Source of the DNA: a virus
Lineage: Duplodnaviria > Heunggongvirae > Uroviricota > Caudoviricetes
Virus record (IMG/VR): IMGVR_UViG_2778261594_000011
Coordinates: 1 to 7,586 of that record
Reading direction: 5' to 3' (one strand)
DNA length: 7,586 bases
Shown here: piece by piece, positions 3,609-7,586 of the stretch
Position numbering within the stretch: the first letter of the stretch is position 1
How the letters are laid out: every line of letters begins with the position of its first letter
Position numbers and translations under genes: made by a program
The notes under the pieces: model-generated
What the model was told of the DNA's origin: nothing
Database searches by the model: none
What the model saw: only the letters and a program-made list of their open reading frames with translations

Positions 3609-4048
3609 TGCCGTGGCAACCGTTAAGGCGATGTACCGAACCAGGCTGCAACAGGCGCGTGAAGTCCGGCAAGTGTGAAGAGCACAGACGCAGCGCACGC
3701 CAGCAGCAGGACAGCCGGAGAGGCAGCAGCAGGGATCGAGGGTATACCAGGCAGTGGGAGAAATACCGCGCCATGTACCTTAATAAAAACCCGTTATGCG
3801 TGCGATGCCTTGAGAAGGGAATATATACGCCCGCCGTGGTGGTGGATCACATTATCCCCATCGATGGCGGTAATGATGTTCTGTTCTGGCCTGAATGGAA
3901 TCATCAGCCATTGTGTCAGGCGTGTCATAACCAGAAAACGAAATGGCTTGATCCGGCCACAAAAAACAAGCGTGCCGCTGGCGGATTCCGTGAGGAGGAA
4001 GAACGGGCAGCCAACCGCAATAACTGGATGTATGACGCTGATGAATGA
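3608..4048 (+). CDS. HNH endonuclease (terminase-associated, cos-packaging type)
   Basis: 146-aa ORF with a Cys-rich N-terminus (CTEPGCNRRVKSGKCEEH) and an HNH core (DHIIPIDGGNDV ... NHQPLCQACHNQKT). TGATG overlap with the upstream gene. It sits directly upstream of the terminase genes, as in HNH-dependent cos phages. Confidence 0.85.
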   Translation: MPWQPLRRCTEPGCNRRVKSGKCEEHRRSARQQQDSRRGSSRDRGYTRQWEKYRAMYLNKNPLCVRCLEKGIYTPAVVVDHIIPIDGGNDVLFWPEWNHQPLCQACHNQKTKWLDPATKNKRAAGGFREEEERAANRNNWMYDADE

Positions 4049-4214
4049 GCGGGAACAAAACCGTCTTATCCGTGGACTTATAAGGCAGCGTGACGCATGG
4101 AAGACACAGGAAACAGGGCATAAAAGCACAAAGGAAGCGCGAACAGGGCGCACCACAGCAACGCGATTAACTGACCGTGACCGCGAGGTGATGGAATGTT
4201 TCCGCAATCGCTGA

Positions 4215-4290
4215 TGATGCTGCCGGACGGGTGGGGGGGAGTTTTCAGGACAAACCCGCCCCCGTCCAGAACCGACCGCCTCCTCAAATT
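4215..4290. other. Candidate cos / terminase recognition region (GC-rich inverted repeat followed by an AT-rich tract)
   Basis: Inverted repeat GGACGGG (4226-4232) / CCCGTCC (4261-4267) flanking a G7 run and a C-rich run, followed by AT-rich sequence up to the terS start. It lies in the 289-bp HNH-terS intergenic gap, the position of cos in HK97-like genomes. Positional inference only. Confidence 0.25.
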
Positions 4291-4337
4291 TTTATGCACG
4301 GGAATTTTTTGAAAAATAATCTGGCGAAAAAATAAGC

Positions 4338-4694
4338 ATGGCAAGACCACCGAAAGCCCCCGCCTACCTGGATGATATCGCCGTGAAGCAGTGGCGGGAA
4401 AAATCGCGGCAGCTTGCGGAACGGGGAGACCTGACCCCCGCCGACTGGAGCAATCTGGAACTGTATTGTGTCAACTACTCCATTTACCGGAAAGCCGTTG
4501 CAGACCTTGCGGCGCGCGGGTTCAGCATTGTTAACAGTCAGGGCGGCGAGAGCAGAAACCCCGCATTAAGCGCAAAATCCGACGCTGAAAGAGTGATGAT
4601 AAAAATGGCCTCCTTGCTCGGTTTTGACCCGATAAGCCGCCGTAAAAATCCACCGGAAACAGAAGAAGAGGACGAGCTTGACCGCCTGGAATAA
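4338..4694 (+). CDS. terS: Terminase small subunit, P27 family
   Basis: 118-aa ORF with sequence character typical of P27-family TerS (KQWREKSRQLAERGDLTPADWSNLELYCVNYSIYRKA; acidic C-terminal tail EEEDELDRLE). It sits immediately upstream of, and overlaps, the large terminase gene. Confidence 0.8.
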   Translation: MARPPKAPAYLDDIAVKQWREKSRQLAERGDLTPADWSNLELYCVNYSIYRKAVADLAARGFSIVNSQGGESRNPALSAKSDAERVMIKMASLLGFDPISRRKNPPETEEEDELDRLE

Positions 4695-6339
4695 GTACGC
4701 AGAAGACGTAAAAACGGGCAAAATTCCGGCCTGTAAACGGCTGAAACAGGCCGTTAAACGGTACTTTTCGGACCTTGAAAGCCCCCTTTACACGTTCGAT
4801 CGTGAGGTTGTGGAGCGGTTTATTGCCTTTTCCAGGGTGTGCCCGCACGTAAAAGGGCCGATGCGTGGCAGACCCATTGAGCTGGAGCCGTGGCAGCAGT
4901 TCGCCTTTGCGTGCATCCTCGGCTTTAAGGTTAAGGCCACCGGACGGCGCAAATACACGAGCGCCTTTATCGAAGTGCCGCGCAAAAATGCGAAATCCAC
5001 GACCGCCGCGATTCTGGCTAACTGGTTTCTGATTATGGAGAACGGGCAGCAGGATATTTACACCGCAGCGGTGAGCCGTGACCAGGCGCGGATCGTTTTT
5101 GATGATGCGCGTCAGATGTGCCTTTTATCCCGACCGTTACGCAGGCGGGTGAATATTCAGGCCCACAAGGTGATGCACCCGAAAAGCAACAGCCTGTTAA
5201 AGCCGCTGGCAGCAAAAGCGGCAACCATCGAGGGAACAAACCCCAGCCTTTCCATCGTGGACGAATACCACCTACACCCCGATAACGGCGTTTATTCCGC
5301 GCTTGAGCTGGGGATGGGCGCACGTCCCGAAGGGCTGTTATTTGCCATTACCACATCGGGCAGTAACGTCGTTTCAACCTGTAAACAGCACTATGATTAT
5401 TGCTGCCAGATCCTGGACGGCGAAGAGGTCAACGATTCAATTTTTGTGCTGATTTACGAGCTGGACGACGAAAACGAGGTTGATGATCCGGCGATGTGGA
5501 TAAAGGCTAACCCTAACATCGATGTTTCCGTGGATCGTGAAAAACTGGCCTCAACCATCCAGAAAGCGCGGGGTATTCCGTCGCAATGGGTGGAGATGAT
5601 GACAAAGCGATTTAATATCTGGTGCCAGGGGGCTACCCCGTGGATGGGTAACGGCGCATGGGCTGAGTGTGCCGGAACGTTCACGGAGGAAGATTTACAC
5701 GGGCAGGAGTGTTACGCGGGGCTGGACTTATCATCAACCAGCGATATTTCCAGCGTGTGCTATGCCTTTCCGGTCGGTAAAAATATCATGCTGGTTTCCC
5801 GTCATTATCTGCCGGAGTTCCAGCTACAGAACCCCGCCAATAAAAACCGCGCTGTCTATCGCCAGTGGGCTAAAGCGGGCTGGATACGCACAACGCCAGG
5901 TGACTGCATTGATTACGACCGGATCAGAGATGACATCATGCAGGATGCGGAGAAATTTAATATCAGGCTGGTGGGCTTTGATACGTGGAACGCCACGCAT
6001 CTCAGGACGCAATTACAGGGGGCTGGTTTTGAGGTGGAGCCGTTCCCGCAAACCTACCTCAGATTCAGTCCGGCGGCGAAATCGTTCGAAGTTTTTGTTA
6101 ACCGCAGGGTGATTGTGCATCGTGGCGATCCGGTGTTGTCCTGGTCGATGAGTAACGTCGTGATGCAGAGTGACGCGAACGCCAATATCAAGCCGAACAA
6201 GAAAAAATCACCGAACAAGATAGACCCGAGCGTAGCGGCGCTGATGGCGTTTGGTACATTCCAGGCAGAGCATGAGGATTTTGCTTTTGATATAAGCGAC
6301 AGCCACCGCCAGAAACTGGAAGAATTTAGCGGGGTGTAA
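4678..6339 (+). CDS. terL: Terminase large subunit (ATPase + nuclease), Terminase_1 / HK97 gp2-like
   Basis: 553-aa ORF. Walker A-like IEVPRKNAKSTTAA and Walker B-like LSIVDEYH in the N-terminal ATPase domain, with an acidic-residue-rich C-terminal nuclease region. The ORF as drawn starts at a TTG (4678-4680), 17 nt inside the terS 3' end; the first in-frame ATG is ~61 codons downstream, after the conserved N-terminal W..Y..DV..GKI..C motif, so the non-ATG start is plausible but unproven. Confidence 0.88.
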   Translation: MTAWNKYAEDVKTGKIPACKRLKQAVKRYFSDLESPLYTFDREVVERFIAFSRVCPHVKGPMRGRPIELEPWQQFAFACILGFKVKATGRRKYTSAFIEVPRKNAKSTTAAILANWFLIMENGQQDIYTAAVSRDQARIVFDDARQMCLLSRPLRRRVNIQAHKVMHPKSNSLLKPLAAKAATIEGTNPSLSIVDEYHLHPDNGVYSALELGMGARPEGLLFAITTSGSNVVSTCKQHYDYCCQILDGEEVNDSIFVLIYELDDENEVDDPAMWIKANPNIDVSVDREKLASTIQKARGIPSQWVEMMTKRFNIWCQGATPWMGNGAWAECAGTFTEEDLHGQECYAGLDLSSTSDISSVCYAFPVGKNIMLVSRHYLPEFQLQNPANKNRAVYRQWAKAGWIRTTPGDCIDYDRIRDDIMQDAEKFNIRLVGFDTWNATHLRTQLQGAGFEVEPFPQTYLRFSPAAKSFEVFVNRRVIVHRGDPVLSWSMSNVVMQSDANANIKPNKKKSPNKIDPSVAALMAFGTFQAEHEDFAFDISDSHRQKLEEFSGV

Positions 6340-6352
6340 TGAGGTCAGCAGC

Positions 6353-6634
6353 ATGACAGAAGCCGAAATACTGCGATTAATCCGCCGCGTCTCTGGAATC
6401 AGCCAGCAGGCTGACGAACAGACCACGCAGCCGGACAGCGTGACAGCCGAAAATTATGCGCGTGTTGTTGCTGAGGTGATGCGCCGTGATGGTATCCAGC
6501 TTAATGATGCGGATATGCGCGACATACGGATCCGCGTTCTGGAAATGCTGGCCTACAATCGCCGCGTTGAACTGTATCGGGAGAAGGAGAAAATCACGTA
6601 TCACTGGAAGAAGCCGGAGCGGTTACGGCGGTAA
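6353..6634 (+). CDS. Hypothetical small protein (93 aa), last gene of the packaging operon
   Basis: ATG with a GAGGT RBS ~8 nt upstream, 13 nt after the terL stop. The protein is charged and Arg-rich with no motif I recognise. Coding status rests on ORF length, the RBS and operon context only. Confidence 0.5.
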   Translation: MTEAEILRLIRRVSGISQQADEQTTQPDSVTAENYARVVAEVMRRDGIQLNDADMRDIRIRVLEMLAYNRRVELYREKEKITYHWKKPERLRR

Positions 6635-6678
6635 CTTGTTGATTAAAAGGCGGCTCAATTCTGAGCTGGGTAGCTGAC

Positions 6679-6719
6679 GGCGGTAACTGTTTGATATTCC
6701 CGATAACGCAAAATTGCGC
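6679..6719. repeat. ~41-bp direct repeat, copy 1 (GGCGGTAACTGTTTGATATTCCCGATAACGCAAAATTGCGC)
   Basis: Direct sequence comparison with copy 2 at 6861-6904, which differs at a few positions. It contains the 17-bp motif gGTAACTnnTTGATATT and a short terminal palindrome (CGCAA-AA-TTGCG). Confidence 0.8.
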
Positions 6720-6774
6720 TGGCTACATCCCTCACATCTGAGGACTGTTAACCAGCAGGCCGGAATATATTCAC

Positions 6775-6797
6775 AAACTACGAAATTTTCGTAGTTT
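6775..6797. repeat. 23-bp near-perfect palindrome AAACTACGAAA-t-TTTCGTAGTTT (operator-like)
   Basis: 11-bp arms that are exact reverse complements around a single central base; located between the two ~41-bp direct repeats. Confidence 0.85.
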
Positions 6798-6860
6798 AAT
6801 TACTCGCCAGTTTATCGTTAACTAGTTGATATTTTCGGAAACCTCAATTTGAGGAAGTCG

Positions 6861-6904
6861 GCGCGGTAACTGTTTTATATTCCCGATAGCGCAAAAATGC
6901 GCGG
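6861..6904. repeat. ~41-bp direct repeat, copy 2 (GCGCGGTAACTGTTTTATATTCCCGATAGCGCAAAAATGCGCGG)
   Basis: Imperfect direct copy of 6679-6719. It is preceded by the palindrome CCTCAA-t-TTGAGG (6842-6854), which mirrors GCTCA-attc-TGAGC (6650-6663) ahead of copy 1. Related partial motifs occur at 6629-6645 (GGTAACTTGTTGATTAA) and 6820-6836 (GTTAACTAGTTGATATT). Confidence 0.8.
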
Positions 6905-6930
6905 TCGGGCAGAATGAGCACCACCTCAAT

Positions 6931-6966
6931 CGTGACGGAGAGTGACAACCAGTGACACACCGTGAC
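6931..6966. repeat. Four (C/A)GTGAC motifs at exact 10-bp spacing (helically phased iteron-like array)
   Basis: GTGAC at 6932, 6942, 6952 and 6962, followed by the palindrome ACGGTT-t-AACCGT (6973-6985). The reverse-complement motif GTCACT recurs at 7064-7069 and 7361-7366. Confidence 0.8.
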
Positions 6967-7019
6967 AAAAAGACGGTTTAACCGTTCATTAAAAATCGAC
7001 GTGATTTTGTGCTTTCCGG

Positions 7020-7038
7020 ATGACGTGGCCAACGTCAT
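7020..7038. repeat. Palindrome ATGACGT-ggcca-ACGTCAT
   Basis: 7-bp perfect inverted arms with a 5-bp spacer, followed by a T6 run; a related GACGTGAT lies at 7001-7010. Confidence 0.75.
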
Positions 7039-7354
7039 TTTTTAGCGAAAAATTCTGATTAAGGTCACTGGCTGAATGGTCATAATTACCACGCAGACCA
7101 TCGAGGCAACCATAGCGATCATCGTTACGGTTGGAGCTTTTCCGCCATTGGTGGAAAAGGTGCACATCTGGATCATCATTACGGTGATCAAGGGTATGTA
7201 AAACCCACCTGGCTGATTAAAGGTTAACCGGAAAAAAAATCCGGTAGCCCCGTTATGGGGATCCCCATATCGACAGCAACGCCTCCTTAAAATTACCCGC
7301 CTTTATATTTCTTGTGCCTATTTGTTCCACGTTGTTTCATACAGTGCACCGAAC

Positions 7355-7378
7355 GGTGTAGTCACTGGTGTAGTCATT
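7355..7378. repeat. Tandem 12-bp direct repeat GGTGTAGTCACT / GGTGTAGTCATT
   Basis: Two adjacent 12-mers differing at one base, ~75 bp from the putative element/host junction. Confidence 0.8.
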
Positions 7379-7421: not shown

Positions 7422-7586
7422 TCAATGCACTATGCGGGATAAGTTATATATAACAGCAATAAATAATGCGAGAATAAACGGCACGATGATCTCGGCGGCA
7501 AAACGGATACCGCAGAGAATAATGACCAGCATTCCCAACATAATGACGATTTTTAGGCCATTGAGCGTGATGATCGGCTTTGCCAT
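7422..7586 (-). pseudogene. tqsA: 5' fragment of a tqsA (ydgG)-like AI-2 exporter gene, truncated after ~45 native codons
   Basis: The minus-strand ATG at 7584-7586 opens an ORF translating [45 protein letters not shown], which matches the TqsA N-terminus as I recall it, then continues IYNLSRIVH and stops at 7422-7424 (54 codons against ~344 aa for intact TqsA). The gene start is at the window edge, so the promoter and upstream region are not visible. Confidence 0.55.

Follow-up and report, generated by a model that had tools for sequence, protein, structure and literature searches.

Two phage-inducible chromosomal islands (PICIs), EcCICFT073 and EcCIEDL933, serve as experimental models for the elements considered here. 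EcCICFT073 is a classical PICI without a terminase, which is packaged by lambda-type helpers. When the genes following its ori were each expressed from pBAD, lambda was blocked by c1503 (rppA) only (PMC6739421), and the construct c1504-c1507::cat remains capable of excision, while its transfer and integration reach 1e6-1e7 per ml (PMC10460865). EcCIEDL933 is the prototype of the capsid-forming PICIs (cf-PICIs), and its capsid gene is 1786. According to the preprint's text on its module mutants, mutation of each packaging-module gene abolished transfer, with the exception of the hypothetical gene 1792, the mutant of which was severely affected (10.1101/2022.09.08.507074). According to a section heading of this preprint, the helper is not blocked by EcCIEDL933 (10.1101/2022.09.08.507074). 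Among the known small proteins to which a gene at the end of such an island may be compared are the PICI-specific Rpp (redirecting phage packaging) proteins and the recombination directionality factors (RDFs), such as lambda Xis and the P4 Vis/AlpA family, which are small basic proteins encoded next to int and att. At the DNA level, the BIME/RIP elements of E. coli combine palindromic units with an IHF site at operon 3' ends.

Here we analysed ORF93, a gene which is present in both experimental model islands (EcCICFT073 and EcCIEDL933 type). It is already listed both as a hypothetical protein and as a PHROG, while a role was assigned by nobody, and its protein accessions and its PHROG are mentioned in no paper found in our literature search. 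Since it is already catalogued and sits in well-studied model islands, ORF93 is not a new kind of system. Our results indicate that it is very probably a real, satellite-specific accessory gene of the right arm and not a part of the packaging machinery.

ORF93 and the island that carries it

The window, i.e. the whole stretch of 7,586 nt that was analysed, is the right half of a cf-PICI of the EcCIEDL933 type inserted in tqsA. Its + strand genes encode the major capsid protein (1-1158), an HK97-type prohead protease, a portal protein, a head-closure protein, a head-tail connector, an HNH endonuclease, a P27-family TerS (4338-4694) and TerL (4678-6339), and strong Pfam and PHROG matches support all head and packaging genes. 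E. coli O43 RM10042 harbours a stretch identical to the window within a 15.5-kb island in tqsA, in which a P4-type integrase, AlpA, RepA helicase, SSB and PerC are followed, in this order, by the head/packaging block, with no tail genes. The P4-type Int contains an Arm-DNA-bind_3 domain and AlpA corresponds to PF05930. This architecture equals that published for cf-PICIs in the preprint's text on EcCIEDL933 (10.1101/2022.09.08.507074). Thus, the original prediction that the DNA may come from a satellite was right. The interrupted tqsA gene (AI-2 transporter) is represented by a 5' fragment at 7422-7586 on the - strand, and its remainder was found beyond attL in locus L001. No Rfam family was detected anywhere in the window. 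The gene and its immediate surroundings comprise the following features:

4678-6339, + strand: terL, the upstream neighbour of ORF93 (context, not functional partner), with matches to Pfam TerL_ATPase and TerL_nuclease
6341-6344, + strand: Shine-Dalgarno-like GAGG, 8 nt 5' of the ORF93 ATG (sequence inspection)
6353-6634, + strand: ORF93, encoding a 93-aa orphan protein, last gene of the island (PHROG 1561; RefSeq WP_000133415.1; dN/dS 0.22)
6434-6598, + strand: conserved core of ORF93, residues 28-82, a predicted helix-loop-helix hairpin (pLDDT 83-89 for residues 31-70)
6599-6631, + strand: C-terminal tail of ORF93, YHWKKPERLRR, near-invariant in the alignments down to 43% overall identity

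ORF93 starts with the ATG at 6353, ends with the TAA at 6632-6634 and is co-oriented with terL, from the stop codon of which (6337-6339) it is separated by a gap of 13 nt. This agrees with the ribosome-binding site and the co-orientation with terL that had been pointed out before. The product, listed in RefSeq as a hypothetical protein, contains 15 Arg and 4 Lys versus 16 Asp and Glu residues and has a pI of 9.5; it is indeed basic and Arg-rich, as had been stated, although its net charge is only +3. The basic charge is concentrated in the last 23 residues (9 K/R versus 4 D/E).

For the analysis of the coding signal, 90 copies of ORF93 were taken from the fetched loci, and 52 distinct 93-codon alleles were used for the calculation of dN/dS. 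The median pairwise value was 0.22. By region, pN/pS was 0.60 in codons 1-30, 0.24 in codons 31-70, 0.20 in codons 71-84 and 0.04 in codons 85-93, and in these last nine codons pS was still 0.30, which shows that the protein and not the DNA alone is constrained. The final codons overlap the first IHF box described below and a repeat family, D2, reaches into the coding region, and one could assume that ORF93 encodes no functional protein and that the frame is open solely through DNA overlap with cis-acting repeats. Such an assumption is hardly credible in view of the low overall dN/dS, of the free synonymous change together with nearly fixed amino acids in the overlapping codons, and of the length and frame, which are held over the range of 43-100% identity. 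Thus, ORF93 is a genuine gene under purifying selection, and it is selected as a protein even where it overlaps the downstream DNA repeat. The check suggested along with the original prediction, namely whether the gene is conserved and has a dN/dS different from ~1, therefore came out in favour of ORF93, which is also kept at its position.

The orphan family represented by ORF93 (PHROG 1561), which also has a short form of 63 aa, is restricted to PICIs of enterobacteria. The profile of PHROG 1561 (function unknown) covers 93/93 positions (residues 1-93 on positions 1-93) with E=1.5e-55, and the 63-aa profile of PHROG 7271 aligns to residues 37-93 with E=1e-4. Both are prophage/satellite families without functional annotation. 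ORF93 differs in nothing from PHROG 1561, and the membership explains nothing about it, since this family is not annotated. Used as a single sequence, ORF93 matched no family in Pfam, NCBIfam or PADLOC (no defence model at E<=1 in the latter), and 18 members of the family gave nothing useful against Pfam at E<=10. Searches of the PDB by sequence and by profile detected no relative (best matches with E of 0.26-2, corresponding to chance), and the predicted structure yielded no informative fold match. In line with the earlier view that ORF93 lacks phage packaging and structural signatures, none emerged from the Pfam, PHROG, NCBIfam, PADLOC, PDB and fold searches; nor did these searches detect a family or fold typical of DNA binding, of RNA binding or of excisionases.

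The family is narrow, with 37 representatives among 1.84 billion clustered proteins. Its members were found in E. coli and Shigella, in a Citrobacter branch with ~43% identity, and as one fragment in Salmonella. According to our tblastn analysis (E<=0.01), none of 50,697 phage genomes contains a homologue, and in the species-representative genomes there was a single locus, in Shigella. Among complete E. coli genomes, ORF93 is carried by 1567 of 5426 (~29%), at up to six places per genome.

AlphaFold2, run with an 18-sequence alignment, predicted a helix-loop-long-helix hairpin with confidence; it is preceded by a weak helix at the N terminus and a disordered linker, and followed by the tail. 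Conserved in the core of the predicted hairpin are Arg59, 61, 70 and 71, the invariant hairpin positions in the alignments are Y35, N51, D54, I58, R61 and L66, and the family consensus of the tail is YxWKKPERLRR. A 63-aa short-form homologue found after terL in locus L117, which we regard as a protein of the PHROG 7271 type, retains just the hairpin and the tail.

Linkage of ORF93 to the attachment arm

In islands with late modules that are unrelated to each other, ORF93 consistently occupies the final gene position before attR; these modules comprise the cf-PICI terminase/capsid module, Rpp with lambda cos, protease-capsid fusions and the modules of Citrobacter. In EcCICFT073, the last gene encodes a protein 91% identical to ORF93 and is located downstream of rppA (c1503, with a product of 144 aa) and of a lambda cosN that is exact and inverted. 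E. coli islands with protease-capsid fusion modules and islands embedded in the late genes of lambdoid prophages also end in ORF93, and Citrobacter islands with unrelated late genes end in a homologue with 43% identity. The nearest upstream neighbour in the 90 loci was an EcCICFT073-hyp137-type module in 34 cases, the TerL of cf-PICIs in 24, RppA in 17 and another gene in 15.

A comparison of cf-PICIs with closely related TerL proteins was particularly informative. We evaluated 75 cf-PICI loci in which TerL is at least 92% identical to that of the window. ORF93 follows 5-13 nt after terL in 57 of them, with alleles down to 62% identity, and is wholly absent in the remaining 18. A short right arm with TGCGGGTTA repeats is present in 16/18 of the loci without ORF93, indicating that the integration module was swapped. 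In right arms with ORF93, GGTGTAGT tandem repeats were found in 29/46 and other types in the rest, and TGCGGGTTA was never found. Thus, ORF93 goes with the att-proximal right arm rather than with terL, and it is very probably placed after terL here only because the late module of cf-PICIs ends there. The cf-PICIs without ORF93 are L130, L133, L143 and 15 more loci (downstream of terL, from approximately position 4160), and the 16 short arms have a length of ~250 nt and three TGCGGGTTA repeats each.

These data bear on the original prediction, in which ORF93 was the terminal gene of a packaging operon. This turned out to be true in the positional sense only, since ORF93 also ends terminase-less islands such as EcCICFT073 and is missing from cf-PICIs which have nearly the same terL and another att arm. 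The accessory character considered at the same time fits the behaviour of ORF93, which is that of an accessory gene and not of a core packaging gene. An accessory subunit of cf-PICI packaging, for example a cofactor of terminase or cos, could be deduced from the tight junction of 5-13 nt with terL in 57 loci and from the effect of the neighbouring small gene 1792 on transfer, as given in the preprint's text on EcCIEDL933. We consider such a function very unlikely: the 91% identical protein of EcCICFT073 ends an island that has no terminase and uses lambda cos and Rpp; ORF93 is not co-inherited with the packaging module, being missing in 18/75 loci with a near-same TerL and present in terminase-less islands; and no homologue from an HK97-like phage, or from any phage with an HK97-type terminase, was found among the 50,697 phage genomes.

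The gene numbers point in the same direction. Counting from capsid = 1786 along the O157 island that encodes the same ORF93 protein, gene 1792 would be the 183-nt ORF between the HNH gene and terS (window 4035-4217) and ORF93 would be gene 1795; the possibility that ORF93 is gene 1792 was therefore rejected. In the preprint's text on the EcCIEDL933 module mutants, 1792 is the sole hypothetical gene named and 1795 is not mentioned. No Pfam family matched the ORF at 4035-4217 (+ strand), which overlaps the place at which a cos site of the HK97 type would be expected.

For EcCICFT073, the ORF93 homologue is the sole credible gene between c1503 and phoQ, and thus c1504-c1507::cat is very probably a construct without it. 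Transfer of this construct, together with the 18 natural cf-PICIs without the gene, points to a non-essential function. The homologue would also be among the EcCICFT073 genes that were cloned and expressed from pBAD. Taken together, the published work suggests that transfer does not require ORF93 and that phages are not subject to interference by it. The interference role that had been envisaged is accordingly disfavoured, by the finding that only c1503 blocked lambda (PMC6739421) as well as by the section heading on EcCIEDL933 and its helper.

In the EcCICFT073 locus (L006), two exact, inverted lambda cosN sequences flank rppA (15559-15570 on the + strand and 16298-16309 on the - strand), and the ORF93 homologue is located just past the second one. 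A lambda-type cos was also considered for the repeats downstream of ORF93, but in contrast to EcCICFT073 with its two exact sites, the window contains no cosN-like sequence, even if 2 mismatches are allowed.

The right arm downstream of ORF93

Between the stop codon of ORF93 and attR (~7420) there are 790 nt without a credible gene and dense in signals. The repeat-rich region that had been proposed to adjoin ORF93 was thus found. Its main features are:

6632-6912, + strand: four co-oriented units of ~46 nt (starts at 6632, 6684, 6819 and 6867), each consisting of an exact or near-exact IHF-consensus box (TAACNNNTTGATW) and a hairpin of variable sequence
6930-6966, + strand: four GTGAC iterons with a phasing of 10-12 nt (sequence inspection)
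7020-7043, + strand: terminator-like hairpin ATGACGT-ggcca-ACGTCAT followed by T5 (7-bp stem, GGCCA loop)
7251-7272, no strand assigned: palindrome GTTATGGGGATCCCCATATC of 22 nt, once per island, ~100 nt inside the arm-type sites
7355-7376, + strand: tandem GGTGTAGTCA repeats, presumed integrase arm-type sites of attR, shared with attL

The IHF consensus is WATCAANNNNTTR, and TAACNNNTTGATW is its reverse complement. Exact matches to this consensus occur three times in the window, all of them in the region 6632-6831 and on one strand, while 0.26 would be expected. The repeat boxes thus conform to the consensus and are predicted IHF sites. The first box uses the TAA stop codon of ORF93, and this is the case in most islands including those of Citrobacter. 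Behind each box, the sequence of the hairpin stem differs from unit to unit and the pairing is kept. Over a set of 28 distinct units, 84% pairing was observed for the inner helix, with changes on both sides in 4/5 pairs, and the covariation was 0.436 as compared to 0.18 in shuffled sequences (0/500) and <=0.18 in slid controls. The G.U pairs of the outer helix work solely as RNA of the + strand. From 0 to 6 copies of the unit are present per island; approximately one fifth of the ORF93-bearing arms have none, and in the O157 island the array is collapsed. A further, perfect hairpin (aaactacgaaa/tttcgtagttt) is located at 6775-6800 between the second and the third unit.

The units are reminiscent of BIME/RIP elements, with which they share palindromic arrays, the IHF consensus, the location at the end of a transcription unit and the variable copy number. 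They differ from them in that all units are co-oriented here and specific to these islands, and in that the hairpin is conserved in structure but not in sequence.

GTGAC iterons were found in 22/62 distinct right arms, and in arms without the IHF units they directly follow the stop codon of ORF93. Such an array resembles an operator or iterons for a DNA-binding protein. The IHF units and the GTGAC iterons are shuffled independently of the ORF93 alleles, and this, together with the 0-6 copies, argues against a fixed pair of protein and site; a fixed pair of ORF93 and the iterons, which we had considered, was weakened for this reason.

The RNA fold of the region 6625-7060 has a z of -4.2. The hairpin at 7020-7043 is probably the 3' end of the late transcript, ~400 nt past the ORF93 stop codon; it was not flagged in a consensus terminator scan. 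Beyond it there are short, overlapping hydrophobic ORFs at 7076-7201 (+ strand, 41 aa) and 7042-7191 (- strand, 49 aa), and the 3' part of the former (...HIWIIITVIKGM) is conserved in EcCICFT073.

The palindrome GTTATGGGGATCCCCATATC was detected in 46/52 ORF93-bearing right arms, including Citrobacter, and occurs once in the 32 kb of L001. Its distance from the att core is fixed, and it may be bound by a dimeric protein belonging to the recombination complex, for which it is a candidate site. As an operator for ORF93 the palindrome appears less convincing in view of this fixed distance and of its presence in 2/18 arms without ORF93. At attL, a second copy of the GGTGTAGTCA pair precedes int by 25-45 nt (L001 1756-1777). 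The pair is present in 29/46 right arms with ORF93 and in none of the ORF93-less arms. These repeats are probably arm-type sites of the integrase, and they overlap the promoter region of int. The distance between ORF93 and the att core ranges from ~250 to ~1000 nt.

Relation to known proteins and possible roles of ORF93

ORF93 resembles the RDFs in several respects. Like lambda Xis and the P4 Vis/AlpA family it is small (93 aa) and basic (pI 9.5) with a basic C-terminal tail, it is encoded next to attP-int in the circle, it adjoins phased direct repeats and IHF sites, and it segregates with the type of the att arm. In contrast to the RDFs, the predicted structure of ORF93 is an all-helical hairpin and not a winged helix, without similarity in sequence or fold; neither a winged-helix/HTH fold nor an RDF family profile was found. 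In addition, the island with ORF93 already encodes AlpA. With Rpp, ORF93 shares the small size, the restriction to PICIs and the distal location, and in EcCICFT073 it lies immediately downstream of Rpp. RppA and RppC have a TerS-like HTH domain, RppA gives weak HTH matches in Pfam and ORF93 gives none, and Rpp blocks lambda while none of the other genes cloned from this region of EcCICFT073 did (PMC6739421). We also rejected ORF93 as an Rpp homologue: BLASTP against RppA gave E=4, and there was no match in the PDB although structures of Rpp exist. Proteins of the Rop/Rom type, which bind RNA stem-loops as dimers, are comparable to ORF93 as modelled in the helix-loop-helix, in the conserved arginines of the long helix and in the presence of stem-loops nearby.

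Based on its location, we tentatively favour the possibility that ORF93 is a late-expressed adaptor which acts on the right arm or the integration module of its own island. ORF93 is the last gene before attR, and therefore it is located directly upstream of attP-int in the excised circle. Furthermore, the packaging strategy is not what ORF93 islands have in common; they share the attP-adjacent arm, with IHF boxes, iterons, P4-type Int and AlpA. Both facts argue for an adaptor acting on the arm or on the recombination complex. ORF93 would be transcribed as the distal gene of the late operon activated by AlpA, and its product would be a small helical-hairpin protein, probably a dimer. The arginine-lined long helix and the invariant basic tail (WKKPERLRR) may dock onto a partner common to the ORF93 islands, most plausibly the own right arm or the recombination complex consisting of P4-type Int with its arm-binding domain, AlpA and IHF. 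In this way ORF93 could tune the direction of recombination or the expression of int after induction, a role which would be helpful but non-essential.

The right arm itself, with IHF boxes, phased GTGAC iterons, a conserved palindrome and arm-type repeats shared with attL, is in agreement with an adaptor. Against it speak the lack of any DNA-binding, RNA-binding or excisionase family or fold detected in ORF93, the supply of an excisionase-type protein by AlpA, the shuffling of the downstream modules independently of the ORF93 alleles and the variable distance to the att core, as well as c1504-c1507::cat, from which the gene would be removed and which still excises, transfers and integrates (PMC10460865). 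Another possible, if somewhat more doubtful, explanation is a trans-acting accessory factor that targets a protein of the host or of the helper phage, for example in anti-defence, in host takeover or in mild interference; its tail would be a docking peptide. It would be compatible with a narrow orphan family that is satellite-specific and absent from phages, with the conservation of the tail at the protein level, with the apparent dispensability for transfer and with the location at a PICI 3' end, a known hotspot of accessory and immune genes (PMC11364771). However, no match to PADLOC was obtained, c1503 alone blocked lambda among the EcCICFT073 genes cloned after ori (PMC6739421), and a helper block by EcCIEDL933 is denied in the preprint's section heading. 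Moreover, the cargo of hotspots is normally variable, whereas ORF93 is constant across islands and varies by allele without being swapped.

The hairpins of the units raise the question of an RNA-binding function, in which ORF93, by a logic like that of Rop or ProQ, would act on the covarying hairpins in the 3' UTR of its own late transcript and control the stability of the 3' end or the read-through to attP-int. The compensatory changes and the G.U pairs, which fit + strand RNA only, support the hairpins, the 3' region is unusually structured (z = -4.2) with a terminator-like hairpin at its end, the first unit abuts the ORF93 stop codon also in Citrobacter, and the model of ORF93 is an Arg-rich helical hairpin. 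On the other hand, ~1/5 of the arms with ORF93 have no units, the box is a perfect IHF consensus at the DNA level, and ORF93 has no similarity to Rop, to FinO/ProQ or to arginine-rich antiterminators. This makes an RNA-binding protein an unlikely candidate.

Returning to the adaptor, it is tempting to speculate that ORF93 founds a satellite-specific class of cofactors of the integrase or recombination complex, or of regulators of the attP-int junction in the circular form, the invariant WKKPERLRR tail of which works with the IHF-box/hairpin units and the iterons of the right arm; we regard this as rather improbable. If true, such a class would explain why ORF93 is fixed at the right end irrespective of the packaging strategy. 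Either a new recombination cofactor or an RNA regulator would be an additional player in the life cycle of PICIs. The membership in the integration arm redirects functional tests from packaging to excision, integration, int expression and the RNA biology of the 3' end. In addition, ORF93 reliably marks where satellites of this class end on the right, which is useful for annotation.

The short form mentioned above deserves a further remark. In L117, the integrase and AlpA of a second island (4623-6404) are located ~270 nt beyond the short-form gene (4165-4356), and this locus is thus a tandem array of satellites at one site.
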